Shown here in pieces: positions 37,722 to 50,580 of a DNA stretch of 64,000 nucleotides (the stretch's first letter is position 1; each line of letters begins with the position of its first letter). The notes under the pieces are model-generated. The model did no database searches, was not told where the DNA came from, and saw only the letters and a list, made by a program, of their open reading frames with translations. The stretch is taken from IMG/VR virus record IMGVR_UViG_2519899835_000003, one strand, 5' to 3'. A program made the translations under genes and the position numbers. This DNA comes from a virus. Taxonomy: Duplodnaviria; Heunggongvirae; Uroviricota; Caudoviricetes.

Positions 37722-38323
37722 GTCACCTTCTGACGTTCTCTGTTAAAAACTGATGCACAATGACTGCTGTAAATTTTCAGATTTCACACAGCAGAGCCAT
37801 GTCTGATTAATGTTTAACCTTATTTAGGTTATATCCGCTTCATTCCACTACAGCACCAGATAGGCTGCCTCGCGGATAAATGCCAAAGTCTCCTGATATA
37901 GAAACCCGTCGCCACATCGAGCGCTGATCAACATTTGTATATTCACTGCGACAGAAAGAATTTATTTTATTGAATAGTTAGAAATACAGAATTGCATGCT
38001 TTATAAGCATTGACGCACACTTCATTTTTAGCAATATATTCTGTTCTCATAGACGATCAGCCCTGCATGCACTGCCGGACACCGTCGGCAATTTTACAGA
38101 CCTAAGAGGCAATACCAAAAAGCTAACGCGCTTTATCAAGACTTGAGCAACCAACCAATAAAAAAAGCACCAGTACCGCTACCAATGCCCATTTCGTCGT
38201 TGTTCACAGCATTCTGTGTACCCACTGTATTTCGCGTCATATCACCACGTCAGACAATCCTTAAGGATTACATAAGATTTACGCATAATAATGCCCATTT
38301 TCAACACAGACAAGGGAATTTAT

Positions 38324-38905
38324 ATGTTAAATCAAACGCTAACAAAATCTCTTCTTATATTTTTACTTGTCATAATCGTTTCTGTATCCATCATATACAT
38401 TGTAAGAACTCCAGTCAGACTTGATGTGAACGATGTCACTGAGATTAACCAGAAACATCCCATTATTTTTCTCATCCGGCATGGGGAAAGATGCGATCGC
38501 TCCCAAAGAATATGTCTTTCAGCACATGAGGGAATCACAGTAAACGGAGCTAACAAAGCTCAACAATATGGAGATAAATTCAGAAGAATGTTTCCATACT
38601 ACAGTCTCTATTCTACAGACACACTCCGAACAATGCAGACAGCCACTTTTTTTTCGGGAGGTAAGACAGCAACTATTCCGGACATATCGACATGTGATGA
38701 TAACGCAGTAAATAATATCCTTAAAATATCAAAATCAGATCATGTTACTGTGATTTTCACACATAATCACTGTCTGTCCAGAATTGCAAAAAAAATGAAT
38801 GGATGGAGATTTAAACCTGATTATATGGGCACACTGGTTCTGCATCGGGAAAATCACAATCTGATTCTCGACGGACATTTAAAACCAAACGAGCTTACCC
38901 AGTGA
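38324..38905 (+). CDS. Histidine phosphatase similar to Ais/PmrG (LPS core heptose(II)-phosphate phosphatase)
   Basis: Signal-anchor then LIRHGERCDRSQRICLS...VIFTHNHCL...FKPDY, matching recalled Ais; AT-rich; opposite strand to late genes. Confidence 0.8.
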   Translation: MLNQTLTKSLLIFLLVIIVSVSIIYIVRTPVRLDVNDVTEINQKHPIIFLIRHGERCDRSQRICLSAHEGITVNGANKAQQYGDKFRRMFPYYSLYSTDTLRTMQTATFFSGGKTATIPDISTCDDNAVNNILKISKSDHVTVIFTHNHCLSRIAKKMNGWRFKPDYMGTLVLHRENHNLILDGHLKPNELTQ

Positions 38906-38985: not shown

Positions 38986-39444
38986 TTAATCGAGGCATTG
39001 CATCCTGATGTACTCCTGCAGGTAGTTAACCTGCGCGGTTATCTTGTCGATTCCACTTCGGAGACGGTAATAATTGAGTTCAGCATCTGCTGTAAGTCCT
39101 GAGCTTTCTCCATCGCCCATGCCGCTGGCTCCGGTCGTTGACTTTGCACAGGTGGCGGCGACTTGCAGGCGCTTACGCCCAGCAGAAACATCAGCACGGA
39201 GACTTTCAATAGTCGCGTTAGCATCAGCAAGCTCCCTGGTGTATCTGGCATCGAGTGCAGCAACATCACGCTGGCGCTGCTGTATGTCAGCAATGGTGGC
39301 GTTCGCCTGGCTGAGTTTTGTCTTCGCATCATCTCGCTGCTCTTTGTAGGTGATGGCGTTATCACGGTAATGGTCTGTTGCCAGCCACAGCGATCCACAA
39401 CCAAGCAGCAGGACAATAAGCACGCCATACAGCACACGATTCAT
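38986..39444 (-). CDS. Rz: Spanin inner membrane subunit Rz
   Basis: MNRVLYGVL...NHYRDNAITYK...RQRDVAALDA matches lambda Rz. Confidence 0.9.
   Translation of the reverse strand: MNRVLYGVLIVLLLGCGSLWLATDHYRDNAITYKEQRDDAKTKLSQANATIADIQQRQRDVAALDARYTRELADANATIESLRADVSAGRKRLQVAATCAKSTTGASGMGDGESSGLTADAELNYYRLRSGIDKITAQVNYLQEYIRMQCLD
39039..39224 (-). CDS. Rz1: Spanin outer membrane lipoprotein Rz1, embedded in Rz in the +1 frame
   Basis: 61-aa ORF MLTRLLKVSVLMFLLGVSACKSPPPV... with lipobox and proline-rich region. Confidence 0.75.
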   Translation of the reverse strand: MLTRLLKVSVLMFLLGVSACKSPPPVQSQRPEPAAWAMEKAQDLQQMLNSIITVSEVESTR

Positions 39445-39445
39445 A

Positions 39446-39559
39446 TCACCACCAACGGATTGCCCAGACCAGAACAGCAATTGCCACAATACGAATGGCA
39501 AAAGCTGCCGCTCTTGTTAAATCCAGACTTGCTGGCGTCTCCACCTCAATGCCTTTCAT
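39446..39559 (-). CDS. Unannotated 37-aa single-TM peptide between endolysin and Rz
   Basis: MKGIEVETPASLDLTRAAAFAIRIVAIAVLVWAIRWW; stop overlaps the Rz start. Confidence 0.3.
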   Translation of the reverse strand: MKGIEVETPASLDLTRAAAFAIRIVAIAVLVWAIRWW

Positions 39560-41202: not shown

Positions 41203-43113
41203 TTATGCGGCTGCTCCAGCTTTGTTTGCTTTAACTTCCACCGTATCAATAAGTACAGGGTAGGTTTCTGCACTACCTGTAATATCCGTAATGACAAACC
41301 TGTTGAGTCCATTAGCAGTATTGGCCCATTTCACCAGGTCAAACGCCTGTCCATCCACACCATCGAGCACCGGAGTAACATTAATGCTGTTACTGCCCTT
41401 AAATTTAAATGCAAGCGTATGCCAGTCATGGTCGAATGCGCCAAACGTGCCAAGTTCTTTTTGTTGATTAACTGTATGATGGTATGCAACATTAATACTG
41501 GCTTTATCTGTCTGGACAAAGAAAGAACTCAGATGGCCTTCACCACCCTCACCCGGCCATTCCGCTATTCGCCAGTACAAACCAAAGGCATACTTGTTTC
41601 TGGTTGTCTCAAGATTGACGTTTTCGGGGATTTTAAACCGGACAGCAATTTCCCCGCCTTTTTCCAGTAAAAGTTTTGCCTTGTCTGCAGCAATATCACA
41701 GTACATTGACCAGGATTTCGCGCTGTTATTTTTCTCAATTCGCAGAGCTTTATTGCCGCTGTCATCAACCAGTGTGCGTCTGCCATACATACCGTCCCAG
41801 CCATAAGGTTTCAGCTGATTGTCTGTAGCTTTTTTGGCATCGTAAAAAATTACAGACTCTGAGGTGGTAACCGGCCTGTCTGGAACAACCACCCCGGCAG
41901 TACCATTAACAAACGCAGAAGACTTACCCGCGCAGCTCAGAATCGCCGTTGCCAGACGGTCGGAAATAATCCCACGGCGAGCCCATGAACTGAAATGGCT
42001 CGCCCTGTCCTGTGACGTCCAGGTGGCTGAGCTGTCACGCCATTTCGAACCGTAATATCCGATACCCGGAATGTCCGGGTCTTCTTCCGGTTTGTTCGTC
42101 GGCACATTCACCCCGTTCTCATCCGTCATGAACGGTACGAAATGGATATTCTTTTCCGTTTTATTTTTATAGCTGCCGTACACCGTCTGGTACGTGGATT
42201 CGTTCTTCTGCTTCCAGAAATACGTCGTGTCCCCGCATATCCAGGGAACACCGCCAGCAGAGCCACCGACGCACTGGCCTGCCATATCCGCCAGGTCTGC
42301 ACGGAATTTATCAACCAGCGCACCAAACTGTGCGGCATGATTTGCCGGCGTACCGCCAAAATCAAATTCCCCCTGCATCCACACCACGGCAAACAGCACA
42401 TTTTTCGGGTTCTTCTCCAGTGCCGCTTTTGTTCGACCGATAAGGTCCTTATACAGCGGCTTGTCCACACCCCAGCGGGTTGAATTCTCCGAGGCACCAC
42501 TCGCGTCACTGTATGTGCCATCAGCTCCGGTGGTGAACGCTGAACCACCACGACAGCACGGAACCAGCAGAATGCCCGCATTCGCCGGTATAAACGGCAG
42601 CAGTTTTTTGGCGATATGCAGCCCCTGCCCCACGGTTCCGTACTGCCCCTTTGACAGGTCCGCTTTCGGATGGTTAAGACGGCTCATGTCCTGCACATCA
42701 TGCAGACAATGGTCCGCCGGAATGATGTCGTTATATTTGCATGCTGCACCGCCCGGTGTCACCGTACTGCGACGCGCTAACTGTTTAATACGTGGATCAG
42801 GGCTGTCGAATGTATCCGGTAATGGCAGTCCCTCACCGTATGACATACCATTGGACTGACCAGCAAGCGCGATCACATAGTAATATTCTGGCGCAACAGA
42901 AGGCGCTGAGGTCGTCGGACGGTTGCCTGGCTCCTCTGGTGATGAGATGCTCCCCTCACTCACAACTGGCTGGATGAACTCCGCACCATAACCAGCTGTC
43001 GAAATCAGCGCACTACCATAAGGCTGCCACCCTTCCTTCAGTTTTTGAGTTATTCGTTTCGCAAGGTCTGACGGCGACGCCGCCCTGACAACATCATAGT
43101 GTTTAAATGCCAT
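41203..43113 (-). CDS. Prophage NanS-like sialate O-acetylesterase (SGNH/DUF303)
   Basis: 636 aa with ALAGQSNGMSYGEG esterase motif; positioned between Q and the holin gene. Confidence 0.75.
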   Translation of the reverse strand: MAFKHYDVVRAASPSDLAKRITQKLKEGWQPYGSALISTAGYGAEFIQPVVSEGSISSPEEPGNRPTTSAPSVAPEYYYVIALAGQSNGMSYGEGLPLPDTFDSPDPRIKQLARRSTVTPGGAACKYNDIIPADHCLHDVQDMSRLNHPKADLSKGQYGTVGQGLHIAKKLLPFIPANAGILLVPCCRGGSAFTTGADGTYSDASGASENSTRWGVDKPLYKDLIGRTKAALEKNPKNVLFAVVWMQGEFDFGGTPANHAAQFGALVDKFRADLADMAGQCVGGSAGGVPWICGDTTYFWKQKNESTYQTVYGSYKNKTEKNIHFVPFMTDENGVNVPTNKPEEDPDIPGIGYYGSKWRDSSATWTSQDRASHFSSWARRGIISDRLATAILSCAGKSSAFVNGTAGVVVPDRPVTTSESVIFYDAKKATDNQLKPYGWDGMYGRRTLVDDSGNKALRIEKNNSAKSWSMYCDIAADKAKLLLEKGGEIAVRFKIPENVNLETTRNKYAFGLYWRIAEWPGEGGEGHLSSFFVQTDKASINVAYHHTVNQQKELGTFGAFDHDWHTLAFKFKGSNSINVTPVLDGVDGQAFDLVKWANTANGLNRFVITDITGSAETYPVLIDTVEVKANKAGAAA

Positions 43114-43597
43114 GAATCCTCCCGGCCGGGATAATATTGTGAGTAAAATAAGGAGCGGGCTGAAGTCCGGAAGTTACAGGACAATGGCAGAAGGGAGACT
43201 ACAGCCCGCAATTCGAAAAAGGTCGCGCAGTTGCGCAGAGTGATTACTATGGGGTATTATTCGCCAGCTGAAATATTACTTCACGTTTCATTGTTCATTC
43301 CTTGCCGCCCGCGTCTCCCAGCGCGGGCTTTTTTGTCCATAAGAAAGCCCCTCCGGAGAGGGGCTGGAGAGTGGCGCTATGTGCCATTGCATGGTGCCGG
43401 GTGCCTCCCGGTGAGTTCAGCCCGGTGCCACTAAACCCGCGTCATTCTCGTTTTGATAATCAGAGATTATACCGTCACCAGTCGCCCCTCCGCTCAGGGG
43501 GATTCACCATGCAGTTTTTTCTAACAAATTCTCATCCGGGCAGACAACATTCAACTGACTTAATTGTGAGGTATGTAACATTCCCGTTGAACGGATA

Positions 43598-43628
43598 CAA
43601 AAAAAGCCAGCCACCAGGGGAGGCTGGC
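43598..43628 (-). terminator. Rho-independent terminator in the Q-to-esterase leader
   Basis: gccagcc...ggctggc hairpin followed by T-run on the minus strand. Confidence 0.45.
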
Positions 43629-43807
43629 AAACTCGTAGAGCAAAATGCTGTTACGCAAACTTCGTTACAGGGTTATCCTGCAATACTTAAAATATACAAT
43701 ATTTAGAAAACTAATAGTGCCATATGAGATTTTTAAGATTTTGTTATTAATTGCGGTCGTACCTTCCTTTCTGTGTACTTTCCGTATAGCTCACAGGATT
43801 CTGGGTA

Positions 43808-43833
43808 CAAAAAAACCCGCGCATCGGCGGGTT
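43808..43833 (-). terminator. Rho-independent terminator about 50 nt downstream of Q
   Basis: acccgc-cgatgc-gcgggt hairpin followed by T7 on the minus strand. Confidence 0.5.
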
Positions 43834-43878
43834 CGGCTGCGTGGCAATGTAACCACTCTTATCATGATATGCAGATTT

Positions 43879-44313
43879 TTACGATCGTAAACTATTTTTT
43901 CGCTGATAAAATACAGAGGTTCTCCCTCCCGGCAATTCACGCTCAACATACCGATCCATCTCAAGCCTCACTCCCAGCATCATCAGCATGCCTTCAACAA
44001 TCCCCTCCGCTTTGTGAAGGCGTTTACCTATACAGGTGTCAGAGCACCCATGTTTCCGTGCCAGCGCCATGAACGTCTCCCCCAACACGTAGTAATCAAC
44101 CAGCAAGTCATGCAGATCGCGATTGTTCCGGTAAAGGCGGGCTATGCACCCGCATATCACCATCGCATCATCGTCACAGCACTGTGGACGTGATTTTACT
44201 TTTTCGGGGATCAGTCCCTTAAATCCGGCAGCAATGGGCGACCATGTAACATCCTCATAGTTATTTACCGCCCATGCCCCCCAGCGCTCAAGAACCTGCC
44301 GGATATCACGCAT
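43879..44313 (-). CDS. Q: Late antiterminator Q
   Basis: [25 protein letters not shown]...[17 protein letters not shown] matches the Q of Stx phages as I recall it. Confidence 0.8.
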
Positions 44314-44503
44314 CAGTATCTTTACCCCATCCGCGATGAACCATAAGGACGCCATTGACGACGGCGTGCTTTTTCGCATCTTTATCATCAATGTATTTTC
44401 TGACTGTAGCACGATTGCAGTTCAGTATTCTGGCGACTTCTGTCTGATTTCCCCTGGTGCAGATCAGTAATTCAGGTATCGTTTGAATTTTAGCATTCAT
44501 CAA
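44306..44503 (-). CDS. ninH: NinH-like DNA-binding protein
   Basis: 65 aa; [19 protein letters not shown]...[17 protein letters not shown]. Confidence 0.7.
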
Positions 44504-45945: not shown

Positions 45946-46629
45946 TCAGTAGCGATGCAGTGAAGGCGGCAACTCTTTGTTCTTAAGCCTTTCCCATGCC
46001 AGAAGGTTCGTCGGCCCGTCAGGCTCATAAATATCTATATCCCGCGTGTGATTAATTAAAACGCCCCTCGCCCTCCCGATGATATACGAGAACTCATAGC
46101 CGTAGTCGTGGCATATGCCGGAATAGCCAGACTGAATCAGTTTTAATGCGGGATACAACTCACGGAACAATGCCTGTGAGCGGTTGGCATAATCCCACAG
46201 CCATACAAGGCTGTCTGTTTCTTTTGCGGAAAGCCCGTTGGGCTTCTTCTCTTGTTTGCCAGTATTTTTCTCGCACTGGCTGAAATAGCAGTCTTCCAGT
46301 TTTTCGAACACATCCCACGCCTGATCGGTTTCTAGCATTTTGGCGTGACGGGCTGCGCCTCGTTCTGTCCAGAGGATGAGGGAGCGAACGTTACGGGCAA
46401 TTTTCACAGAGTAGTTAAAAGCTACTCTGTGCTTGAACTCACGTAAAGTTTCACCTTCAAGTTTGAAGAAGTGTTTTTCCTCAATGAAACGACCTTTGTT
46501 TTCGTGGTGATTCTGGCGAATACGAATAGCTTCTGTGCCGTAAAGGTGCGCCAAAAGTTCGGTAGTGATAACGGGGATCTGCTTGTAAGTAATCGTGGAG
46601 AGTGTTTCAACAGAGATTTGAGTTGTCAT
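45946..46629 (-). CDS. ORF6N (Bro-N-like) domain antirepressor
   Basis: N-terminal ~110 aa shared with the 47548-48213 paralog ([20 protein letters not shown]...[20 protein letters not shown]). Confidence 0.7.
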
Positions 46630-46890
46630 AATGACGCCCTCGAGTGGTTTCTTAATAACTCACCACCGACGACGCCAATCGTCTGGTGGTGAACTGTGCA
46701 GGGTTGGCGTAACCGGGAAACCGACCGGCGCGGATCTCTCCGCCCCCACACAGCCCACCATAATTCAGATGTGCGCGTGCATACGACAATAAAAAACACG
46801 CTCGCGGCGTGTATCTGTCGCGGTCTCTATCCAGGACGCCAATCCCGACGCCAGATTTTGCTGGCGCGTGAGGAATATAGCCCCGAATAA
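46630..46890 (-). repeat. Copy 1 of a ~260-bp structured leader upstream of an ORF6N gene
   Basis: Aligns with 48214-48475; shared hairpins with compensatory base changes; hairpin plus T-run at 46789-46812. Confidence 0.6.
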
Positions 46891-47547: not shown

Positions 47548-48213
47548 TCAGAATTCAAATTGTCTTGCCCGCAGGCTTTTCAGCATTGGCATGGCCCGCT
47601 GGATAACGGAACTTGACATGTCGAGACGTGTTACCTCCCTCAGTAGCGCGTCTCTGTTCTTCGTCACCATGTAGATGGTCTCAAACGCAATGTCATACAG
47701 CTTGTTCGTGTATGAGGAGTTCAGCTCTTTCATAATGGGATACAGGTGTTTGCTGATGTCCTGGGCTTTTTCCATCCAGAGCTGCATGTAGCAAAGGAGG
47801 ATGATTTCTTCGGCTGTGAATTGTGGCTGAATCTGCGGCTGCTGTTCGGTTGGTGCTGTTTTTCCCTGGCTGAAATAGCAGTCTTCCAGTTTTTCGAATA
47901 CCTCCCACGCCCGATCGGTTTCGAGCATTTTTGCGTGACGGGCTGCGCCGCGTTCTGTCCAGAGGATGAGGGAGCGGGCATTTTTACCAACTAACCCGAT
48001 TGTTTCGGGTCTGTTCTTAAACTCGCGTAATTCGTTTTTTTCAATTTTAAAGTAATGCTTTCCGGGCATGAATCGCGTCGTGTTGTTCAGAAAGTTATCA
48101 GAAATGTTTTTGATTTTTGTTCCGTAAAGGTGAGCCAACAGTTCAGTAGTAATTACGGGGATCTGGTTATAGGTAACAGGGGAAAGGTTTTCGACAGAAA
48201 TTTGAACAGCCAT
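47548..48213 (-). CDS. ORF6N domain antirepressor paralog with the shared C-terminal domain
   Basis: N-terminus like 45946-46629; C-terminus like the 2929-3558 protein. Confidence 0.75.
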   Translation of the reverse strand: MAVQISVENLSPVTYNQIPVITTELLAHLYGTKIKNISDNFLNNTTRFMPGKHYFKIEKNELREFKNRPETIGLVGKNARSLILWTERGAARHAKMLETDRAWEVFEKLEDCYFSQGKTAPTEQQPQIQPQFTAEEIILLCYMQLWMEKAQDISKHLYPIMKELNSSYTNKLYDIAFETIYMVTKNRDALLREVTRLDMSSSVIQRAMPMLKSLRARQFEF

Positions 48214-48475
48214 AATGACCTCGCGTTTCGATAATTTTTACCTCGCCACCGTCAGGTGCTAATCATCGTGGTGGCGAACTGTGCGGGGTTAGCACTACCG
48301 GTCGAAACATCCGGCGAGCCTTTCGGCTCCCCCACACAGCCCGCCATAAATCGCGAATGTGACTGTGCTTAGCGCATAAAAAAACCGCCAGCGCGGTTAT
48401 GCACCGTTTCGATATCCGGGGTGCTAATCCCGACGCCAGGTTTTGCTGGCGCGTGAGGAATATAGCCCCGAACAC
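48214..48475 (-). repeat. Copy 2 of the structured leader upstream of an ORF6N gene
   Basis: Homologous to 46630-46890; hairpin plus T-run at 48378-48398. Confidence 0.6.
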
Positions 48476-50179: not shown

Positions 50180-50335
50180 TTACTCCTCAGGTTCGTAAGC
50201 TGTGAAGACAGCAACCTCCGTCTGACCGGTTCGGATTCGTACCTCGCATAGGTCTTTCCTCGTTACCAGTGCCGTCACTACGACGGTAATACAGATGACG
50301 ATCAGGGCGACTAACATCGCCTTTTGCTGCTTCAT
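50180..50335 (-). CDS. hok: Hok/Gef-family type I toxin
   Basis: MKQQKAMLVALIVICITVVVTALVTRKDLCEVRIRTGQTEVAVFTAYEPEE, near-identical to HokC/Gef as recalled. Confidence 0.9.
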   Translation of the reverse strand: MKQQKAMLVALIVICITVVVTALVTRKDLCEVRIRTGQTEVAVFTAYEPEE

Positions 50336-50580
50336 AGCCTGCTTCTCCTTGCCTTTCGGCGCGTAAGAGGCTAACCTACATGTGTCTAGCATGAAATTGG
50401 CCTCAGATTAATGTTAGGCGTCTTGCAGGACGCGTAATGTTAACTGGGGTTTTTCTCTGTCTGCCTTACGGTGGCATGCCCGAGGCAGACAGCCTCAAGC
50501 ACCCGCAGCAATTCTACTTAACTCTCGCTTTACCGCAAACCGTTTTTACCCGATATGGGAATTCCCATATCGTAATGAAT

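Follow-up and report, generated by a model that had tools for sequence, protein, structure and literature searches.

What occupies the late region of a Shiga toxin (Stx) phage relative that carries no toxin? In Stx phages, the toxin genes stxAB lie between the terminator tR′, downstream of the antiterminator gene Q, and an esterase gene. In a 64,000-nucleotide stretch of a Caudoviricetes virus (IMG/VR record IMGVR_UViG_2519899835_000003), hereafter the window, Q and the esterase gene are separated by an intergenic stretch of exactly 765 bp (43114–43878). A preliminary description of the sequence took this interval for an empty toxin slot, with about 760 bp devoid of a convincing open reading frame (ORF). 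The interval does contain no tRNA gene, no stx gene and no credible ORF, yet "empty" is the wrong word for it. By comparison with enterohemorrhagic Escherichia coli (EHEC), most of its 765 bp is assigned to a late promoter and three small RNA (sRNA) genes known from EHEC, at ~43065/43142–43335, 43335–43540, and 43600–43891. We conclude that the interval very probably represents a late-operon control region that lacks the tRNA–stx cargo and keeps the sRNA genes that bracket this cargo in Stx phages. A prophage carried by the E. coli O104:H4 outbreak genomes, and by some other strains, matches the window at 99.9% identity. This host genome is among the most-studied E. coli genomes.

Content of the interval

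The late direction of the phage in the window is the minus strand. The features of the interval and its two flanking genes are as follows, listed in the late direction, with hairpin energies from RNAfold.

43879–44313, minus strand: gene for a Q antiterminator of the 933W type (Q933; Pfam PF06530, Phage_antitermQ, E = 2e-50).
43864–43891, minus strand: late promoter pR′ (TTTACG-16-TATCAT) from a promoter scan, overlapping the 3′ end of Q and equivalent to the pR′ annotated in 933W (1167–1194).
43843–43850, minus strand: qut site, by coordinate transfer from 933W.
43806–43834, minus strand: early hairpin followed by T7, roughly between +24 and +52 on the pR′ transcript and just past qut (−12.6 kcal/mol).
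43857 to 43600, minus strand: StxS homologue (StxS_L), a 258-nt pR′-to-tR′ transcript predicted by homology.
43599–43628, minus strand: intrinsic terminator tR′, a 7-bp GC-rich stem followed by T7 (−16.8 kcal/mol; 933W annotation 1430–1458).
43570–43599, minus strand: 30-nt junction TGTATCCGTTCAACGGGAATGTTACATACC, from BLAST break points and alignment.
43335–43540 (43540 to 43335), minus strand: STnc100-family sRNA gene (Rfam RF02076, 165.1 bits against a gathering threshold of 47, model positions 1–206 of 206, E = 7.5e-39).
43142–43335, plus strand: homologue of EcOnc08/EcOnc21 (Sp4) and EcOnc42 (Sp15), convergent with STnc100.
43224–43237: short inverted repeat GCGCAGTTGCGC, in a block invariant in an alignment of the window, 933W (AsxR type), phi296, and EC3283.
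41203–43113, minus strand: nanS-p-type sialate O-acetylesterase gene (Pfam DUF1737, SASA, and DUF6645).

No tRNA or tmRNA gene was found in the whole window by ARAGORN. The Rfam scan that gives three tRNA genes each in 933W, phi296, and EC3283 gives none in the interval, and no stx homology is present there. The RNA family search proposed in the preliminary description thus returned no tRNA but did return STnc100. The lack of a credible ORF does not imply a lack of genes, as the interval carries RNA genes.

The hairpins of the interval have a similar explanation. Eight hairpin-plus-T-run sites are present in 42900–44500, against 1.1 ± 1.1 in shuffled sequences, so the excess is real. Five of the eight lie inside the interval and occupy both strands; the preliminary description had counted at least three there, in both orientations. 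They are best read, from their positions, as the terminators of the three sRNA homologues and not as anonymous structure.

Late promoter, tR′, and the StxS homologue

The segment from ninH to tR′ is nearly the same as in 933W. Window positions 44450–43600 align with 933W 608–1458 over 851 bp at 96% identity, covering ninH, Q, pR′, qut, and both terminators. Because the alignment is gap-free, the 933W annotations carry over directly. Transcription from pR′ would start at ~43857.

In lysogens of Stx1 and Stx2a phages, pR′ is constitutive, and transcription from it terminates 258 nt downstream, at tR′ (Sy et al. 2020, PMC7547250). RNase E cuts this transcript at GU|AUU to produce a stable Hfq-binding sRNA, StxS, by which rpoS is activated and stx1 repressed (PMC7547250). 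In the window, 258 nt from ~43857 reaches 43600, which is both the last base of the T-run and the last base homologous to every comparator: the homology to 933W, phi296, Nil3, EC3283, and Sp15 stops at 43600 in every case. The 258-nt segment is 96.9% identical to Sp5/933W and 94.6% identical to Sp15. The RNase E motif GUAUU is found at 43686–43682, with GU|AUU marked at 43684–43686. The processed form, StxS_S, would span ~43600–43684 and is identical to Sp5/933W at 83 of 85 positions, with both mismatches located in the terminator loop. The interval from 43857 to 43600 thus has the sequence properties of an StxS gene, namely the pR′–tR′ span, the 258-nt end, the GU|AUU site, and an intact 3′ fragment. 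The tR′ terminator, with the anchor sequence GGCTGGCTTTTTT, constitutes the 3′ end of StxS and also the left edge of the cargo slot. The early hairpin is annotated in 933W (1227–1249) as a "possible rho-independent terminator", and Term-seq places the StxS 3′ end downstream of its position (PMC7547250). The hairpin may pause or partly terminate transcription, or may belong to the region where Q loads.

The pR′–tR′ RNA resembles in its logic the 6S RNA of lambda and the corresponding RNAs of phages 21, phi80, 82, and P22, where a late promoter that is constitutively active and a terminator that responds to Q yield a short RNA in the lysogen (PMC7547250). The StxS-type RNA differs in being longer and in its processing by RNase E. 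Rfam models of Qrr and VqmR also match 43596–43734 on the minus strand with scores below gathering, and membership of these families was rejected. The resemblance is located on the StxS 3′ fragment and its terminator and is probably generic.

STnc100/EcOnc27-type RNA

The STnc100-family gene is positioned on the late strand, past the cargo site and upstream of the esterase gene, as reported for Stx phages (PMC12711010, PMC12370729). In 933W, the RF02076 match lies 75 nt past stxB2, and the relative position is the same in 933W, phi296, and EC3283. STnc100 and EcOnc27 have already been linked downstream of stx2B (PMC12711010; PMC12370729), where published work equates EcOnc27, sRNA103, and STnc100. 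The equivalents of this RNA are EcOnc27 in Sp5, EcOnc05 in Sp4, and sRNA103 in EDL933. EcOnc27 is an Hfq-bound RNA of ~235/247 nt in strain Sakai (Tree et al. 2014). The Northern probes for EcOnc27 and EcOnc05 map within the homologous segment in 933W/Sp5 and Sp4, respectively.

The gene ends in a terminator hairpin at 43346–43365 (−17.3 kcal/mol), which includes gcccctccggagaggggc at 43347–43364. The preliminary description had listed this element as a perfect palindrome at about 43348–43365. The hairpin is present, but its position is shifted by one base and it is not a perfect palindrome, being composed of a 4-nt loop between arms of 7 bp (8 bp if the flanking A/T is counted). The promoter scan detected no convincing conserved sigma-70 match for STnc100.

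Some variation is seen at this gene. Its first ~20 nt (43520–43540) read CCCGGATGAGAATTTGTTAG, compared with CAGACTGAGCATTTGTTAAA in 933W (3278–3300); in one paper, the 5′ stretch of STnc100 is predicted to pair with stxB (a prediction only). Two IMG/VR contigs (L014 and L018), otherwise 99.7–100% identical, carry a ~38-bp deletion inside STnc100, equivalent to window positions 43387–43424 and flanked by short CCGG(G)TGCC repeats, which suggests that STnc100 is dispensable or decaying in some lineages. Contig L020, which shares the toxin-free junction of the window, contains two tandem STnc100-family genes before the esterase gene (1987–2178 and 2454–2662; 145 and 130 bits), as do L027, L032, and L034.

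Convergent plus-strand RNA

The third RNA gene faces STnc100 from the opposite strand. Its segment is 92.7% identical to Sp4 and 91.2% identical to Sp15 over 193 nt, and 99% identical to phi296 and the Stx2a phage EC3283. It terminates in a hairpin at 43307–43328 followed by T6 (−16.9 kcal/mol). Hfq peaks obtained by crosslinking and analysis of cDNA (CRAC) map onto the plus strand of the window at 43261–43332 for EcOnc08 and at 43170–43255 for EcOnc21. EcOnc42, described in Sp15 as "3′ of the toxin", was transferred by hand to ~43169–43251 after a coordinate shift. The corrections applied to the Sakai coordinates of Tree et al. were ~+140 in Sp5, ~+135 in Sp15, and 0 in Sp4; they were derived from the probes and the tR′ positions, with the EcOnc05 probe as a check on the zero shift in Sp4. 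The segment is identified as a putative member of the EcOnc08/21/42 group by its homology, its antisense orientation, and its terminator, which faces the STnc100-type RNA.

Apart from one match of 9 of 12 positions, ATGCCA-17-GATAAT, the scan gave no convincing conserved sigma-70 candidate for this RNA at a length of ~271 nt. A start further upstream, at ~43065, would make the RNA antisense to the nanS-p start codon. On the minus strand, the inverted repeat GCGCAGTTGCGC forms a weak hairpin with a T-run (−7.0 kcal/mol). The GCGCAGTTGCGC block is invariant although the four aligned loci bear different antisense RNAs, of either AsxR or EcOnc08 type.

Cargo junction

The 30-nt junction between tR′ and the STnc100 module stands in place of 933W 1459–3248, a 1,790-bp segment composed of a methylase remnant, the tRNA promoter pT, ileZ-argN-argO, and stxA2B2. 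Beyond the junction, window positions 43569–43000 align with 933W 3249–3803 at 80% identity, starting 46 nt past stxB2. The alignment to a 933W-type phage suggested in the preliminary description therefore bore it out: the segment with ileZ-argN-argO and stxA2B2 is exactly the one that is missing. Compared with phi296, in which 473 bp with tRNAs as the only cargo occupy the slot, the unmatched stretch is 17 nt (43583–43599).

The slot has defined edges. It is bounded on the left by the T-run of tR′ and on the right by a conserved TCACAATT(A/C)AG box at ~43569, about where the 5′ end of a ~235/247-nt EcOnc27/STnc100 transcript would fall. These edges are common to different types of cargo: tRNAs with stx2 in 933W and EC3283, stx1 in Sp15, tRNAs alone in phi296, and tRNAs in Nil3 and in Sp4, with an additional AraC regulator in Sp4.

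Among 5,426 complete E. coli genomes, 31 have the exact junction, most of them O104:H4 or related strains. Inclusion of a one-nucleotide variant (G or A) raises the count to 88 genomes (~1.6%), among them Shiga toxin producers (STEC) of serogroups O103 and O145. The junction also occurs in 26 IMG/VR contigs, with the 30-nt spacing in all of them, and a search of IMG/VR for other spacings of 36–66 nt between tR′ and the TCACAATT box found none. The exact junction has no match in 50,697 GenBank phage records or in bacterial contigs sampled at one genome per species. In diverged contigs, identity is 92–100% over the stretch that starts at pR′ and includes StxS, the filler, and the first ~40 nt of STnc100, while it is 25–75% farther downstream; some junction-bearing backbones have a Q region of ~81% identity. 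The same junction on diverged backbones indicates a circulating haplotype spread by recombination rather than a recent deletion confined to this strain.

Two IMG/VR contigs that share the toxin-free junction (L015, 4795–5454, and L016) encode a 219-residue ORF in ~780 bp of extra DNA between Q and pR′, an insertion point that differs from the classic slot downstream of tR′.

Relation to Stx phages

On the sequence comparisons, the prophage is a close stx-negative relative of Stx phages, lambdoid, 933W-like, and short-tailed, in line with the preliminary description. Q is 99.3% identical to 933W/Sakai Sp5, the pR′–tR′ segment 96.9%, and the 5′-terminal 300 nt of nanS-p 99.7%. The part of the late region that was searched (18500–43113, 24.6 kb) is covered to 77–85% at ~94% identity by Stx1 and Stx2 phages such as Stx1_2409, POCJ13, and ArgO145 (Stx1a/Stx2a). 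The backbone is of the Sepvirinae type, with a Q933-type Q and its pR′, qut, and tR′, and with nanS-p, lysis genes, and a 933W-like structural module. An Stx-converting phage would in addition contain stxAB between tR′ and the esterase gene, which is missing here together with the ileZ-argN-argO cassette. This cassette is typical of Stx2 phages but not universal among them. Neither toxin or tRNA genes in the interval nor a lack of relatedness to Stx phages in this region was found, the two outcomes that the preliminary description had named as speaking against it.

The window shares with 933W and Sp5 the Q allele, pR′, qut, and tR′ with StxS, followed by STnc100/EcOnc27, a convergent antisense RNA, nanS-p, holin, lysozyme, and Rz/Rz1, and a related short-tailed structural module. 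It differs from them in lacking the 1,790-bp cargo segment, in its STnc100 copy (79% identical), and in the antisense RNA, which is of EcOnc08/42 type in the window and is AsxR in 933W. The nearest phage records are phi296, phi315, phi367, TL-2011a, and PPwrbA_EH2201, with ~96% identity across the interval. This group likewise has no stx, and its STnc100 and plus-strand RNA are 97% and 99% identical to those of the window, respectively. Unlike the window, it still has a methylase remnant and three tRNA genes in the stretch that separates tR′ from the STnc100 module.

Convergent Hfq-bound sRNAs just upstream of the esterase gene are also found in two Sakai prophages, the Stx1 phage Sp15 and the non-Stx prophage Sp4, where EcOnc05 is the counterpart of the STnc100-type RNA and EcOnc08/21/42 are counterparts of the plus-strand RNA (91–93% identity). 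Sp15 has StxS1 as well, but differs in carrying stx1AB without tRNAs. Sp4 differs by its AraC-family regulator and tRNAs and by a different Q region. Genes of the nanS-p type are known in non-Stx prophages of O104:H4 and EDL933, and an association of prophage esterase genes with STnc100 and its related RNAs is described in a 2026 preprint.

Alternative explanations

The interval might be regarded as an essentially empty, structure-rich spacer, that is, a cargo bay itself devoid of genes. The absence of protein, tRNA, and toxin genes and of any RefSeq annotation would fit this view, which is nevertheless highly improbable given the full-length STnc100 covariance-model match of 165 bits, the 97% identity to the experimentally defined StxS, and the 91–93% identity to the Hfq-bound EcOnc08/21/42 RNAs. 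Each hairpin stands at the 3′ end of one sRNA, and just 30 nt are unaccounted for. That the interval instead encodes small proteins, from plus-strand ORFs of 134, 99, 81, or 67 residues, is the least credible of the alternatives and verges on the implausible. These ORFs match PHROG families with E values of ~1e-50 to 1e-69, and several are annotated as hypothetical proteins in phi296; however, the families are all of unknown function, and the matches reflect near-identical ORF calls in close genomes rather than coding evidence. The ORFs of at least 60 residues in the interval are all antisense to the late operon and overlap the RNA genes. No interval ORF has a Pfam domain, and the RefSeq pipeline PGAP calls no coding sequence between Q and the esterase gene in the O104:H4 copy, where it annotates the same 435-nt Q coding sequence. 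The longest ORF, of 134 residues, crosses the cargo junction and so cannot exist in Stx phages, and its counterparts in homologues have 55–110 residues. The small ORFs were thus rejected as coding genes for want of a Pfam domain, of PHROG matches with a known function, and of conserved length. A further alternative concerns the plus-strand element, which could be an anti-sRNA of the AsxR/AgvB type, a 51–60-nt sponge for a core sRNA as in Sp5, Sp9, Sp10, and Sp17. It has the position and orientation of such an RNA, immediately 3′ of STnc100 and convergent with it, as well as a strong terminator, and an upstream block that includes CGCGCAGTTGCGCAG is common to the window and the AsxR locus of 933W. 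The published AsxR sequence is inexact relative to NC_002695.2, and AsxR was placed by Rfam on 933W instead. The AsxR model (RF02703) scores 88 bits on 933W and has no match in the window, phi296, or EC3283; in the window, neither RF02703 nor the AgvB model (RF02702) matches even at E ≤ 1. The conserved 3′ ~42 nt of AsxR/AgvB is missing from the window, the body and terminator differ in the alignment, and the sequence fits the ~271-nt EcOnc08/21/42 RNAs better. Membership in the AsxR/AgvB families was rejected on these grounds, and we regard such an assignment as very unlikely.

The interpretation of the interval as a control region with three sRNA genes has points against it. All three RNAs are called here by homology, and small ORFs are called in the interval by some phage annotations and fall into PHROG families of unknown function. 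The early hairpin at 43806–43834 looks strong and, if it is an efficient terminator, would reduce the amount of full-length StxS. StxS_S would be 85–86 nt long in the window, compared with 74 nt on the published Northern blot (PMC7547250). The STnc100 copy is a mosaic, with 79% identity to 933W, 91.5% to Sp15, and 97% to phi296, and its 5′ end differs from that of the 933W copy, so its targets could differ as well. The 5′ end of the plus-strand RNA is uncertain: use of the ATGCCA-17-GATAAT promoter would place it at ~43142, and a length of ~271 nt, as in Sakai, at ~43065. How the toxin-free state arose is a separate matter. The phage may be a former Stx2 phage that lost the tRNA–stx cassette by a recent single deletion in this lineage, and the closeness of its flanks to 933W/Sp5 (Q and the 5′ end of nanS-p), the nearly invariant junction sequence, and break points within a few nucleotides of those for other cargo sets are consistent with such an event. 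The 30-nt filler, on the other hand, has no significant similarity to the missing segment, as local and global alignments were no better than those of shuffled sequences (43 of 300, 68 of 300, and 456 of 1,000 shuffles reached the observed score), and consequently provides no direct evidence of a deletion scar. The occurrence of the junction in 88 genomes, including O103 and O145 STEC, and on backbones with diverged Q and downstream modules, some with tandem STnc100 genes, also argues for a long-standing toxin-free allele. We therefore find a recent deletion doubtful, although an older deletion that spread later is possible. More speculatively, the toxin-free junction might represent the Stx moron site in an acceptor state that has yet to be filled, with morons swapped as cassettes between two sRNA units, an idea that we hold to be unlikely. 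Were it true, StxS and STnc100, ~60 nt apart in the empty allele, would be near enough for read-through of tR′ to generate a fused StxS–STnc100 RNA with its own regulatory behavior.

Proposed operation of the control region

Under the preferred reading of the interval as a late-operon control region, its operation may be outlined by analogy with EHEC Sakai, from which transcription, processing, Hfq binding, and targets are extrapolated. In the lysogen, pR′ would be constitutively active, and in the absence of Q, polymerase would halt at tR′ (43600), freeing a 258-nt StxS-type RNA. Trimming by RNase E at GU|AUU would leave a stable Hfq-binding 3′ fragment, which in EHEC activates rpoS translation. 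An STnc100/EcOnc27-type RNA would be encoded ~60 nt downstream and end at its own terminator. On the opposite strand, an EcOnc08/21/42-type RNA, antisense to the nanS-p leader, would end at the back-to-back terminator. Upon induction, the Q933-type antiterminator would load at qut and modify polymerase, and the modified polymerase would pass both tR′ and the terminator of STnc100 and go on to transcribe nanS-p and the genes for lysis and structure. The cargo of Stx phages lies between tR′ and the STnc100 module, the position by which the toxin is made Q-dependent; here, 30 bp are found in its place.

The components of this region have all been described before, including the moron site, StxS, and the link between STnc100 and EcOnc27, and their arrangement is ordinary and known. 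A moron site downstream of pR′ with convergent sRNAs was reported by Tree et al. (2014, PMC4104026); the "ready cargo site under late control" of the preliminary description corresponds to this established concept and is not a new inference (PMC4104026). Two aspects are mildly new: the boundaries of the slot fall at, or very near, the ends of sRNA transcripts, and an allele with neither tRNAs nor toxin circulates in ~1.6% of the complete E. coli genomes. The outcome is chiefly a correction, in that an apparent empty toxin slot turns out to be a compact prophage sRNA cluster comprising homologues of StxS, STnc100/EcOnc27, and an EcOnc08/42-type RNA. In EHEC, Hfq binds these sRNAs, and those that have been tested influence host regulation (rpoS and, reportedly, fimZ and espA). 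A toxin-free relative thus probably continues to provide the non-coding regulators that accompany stx, which is relevant to stx-negative prophages of O104:H4, O103, or O145 strains that are dismissed as inert. The junction also supplies exact coordinates for the cargo site. With flanks of ~850 bp and 570 bp that are 93–96% identical, it is plausible from sequence that homologous exchange with a co-resident Stx2a phage could move the tRNA–stx cassette.

Neighboring genes

The esterase, a protein of 636 residues named "SASA family carbohydrate esterase" in RefSeq, is encoded by the first late protein gene beyond the slot. Two small ORFs 3′ of it align with the RefSeq DUF1378 and DUF826 genes of the O104:H4 prophage and are followed by genes for a P21-type holin and then a lysozyme, both assigned by Pfam matches. 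The order of esterase, holin, endolysin, and Rz/Rz1 given in the preliminary description holds, except that it omits the two small ORFs. The capsid annotation in the O104:H4 copy is of N4-gp56 type. The last of the lysis genes is listed below.

38986–39501: Rz gene with an embedded Rz1 lipoprotein frame, identified from ORFs only.

An ORF of 204 residues (38291–38905, plus strand) closely follows Rz/Rz1 but has the opposite orientation, at about the position of bor in 933W. By coordinate transfer, it corresponds to the RefSeq lipopolysaccharide core heptose(II)-phosphate phosphatase of the O104:H4 copy. With this phosphatase-annotated ORF, the prophage does carry a moron of the lysogenic-conversion type, located outside the Q slot.

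Two tandem sets of Rfam matches (C4 antisense RNA, isrK, and c4-a1b1 targets) are found on the minus strand at 46682–46880 and 48267–48465. Each set is upstream of an ORF6N-type or antirepressor-like ORF (45946–46629 and 47548–48213), and they look like duplicated P1/P7-style C4-controlled antirepressor modules in the early-right (nin) region. A sok antitoxin RNA match of 110 bits at 50330–50504 on the minus strand corresponds to the hokD/sok type I toxin–antitoxin system annotated in the O104:H4 copy.

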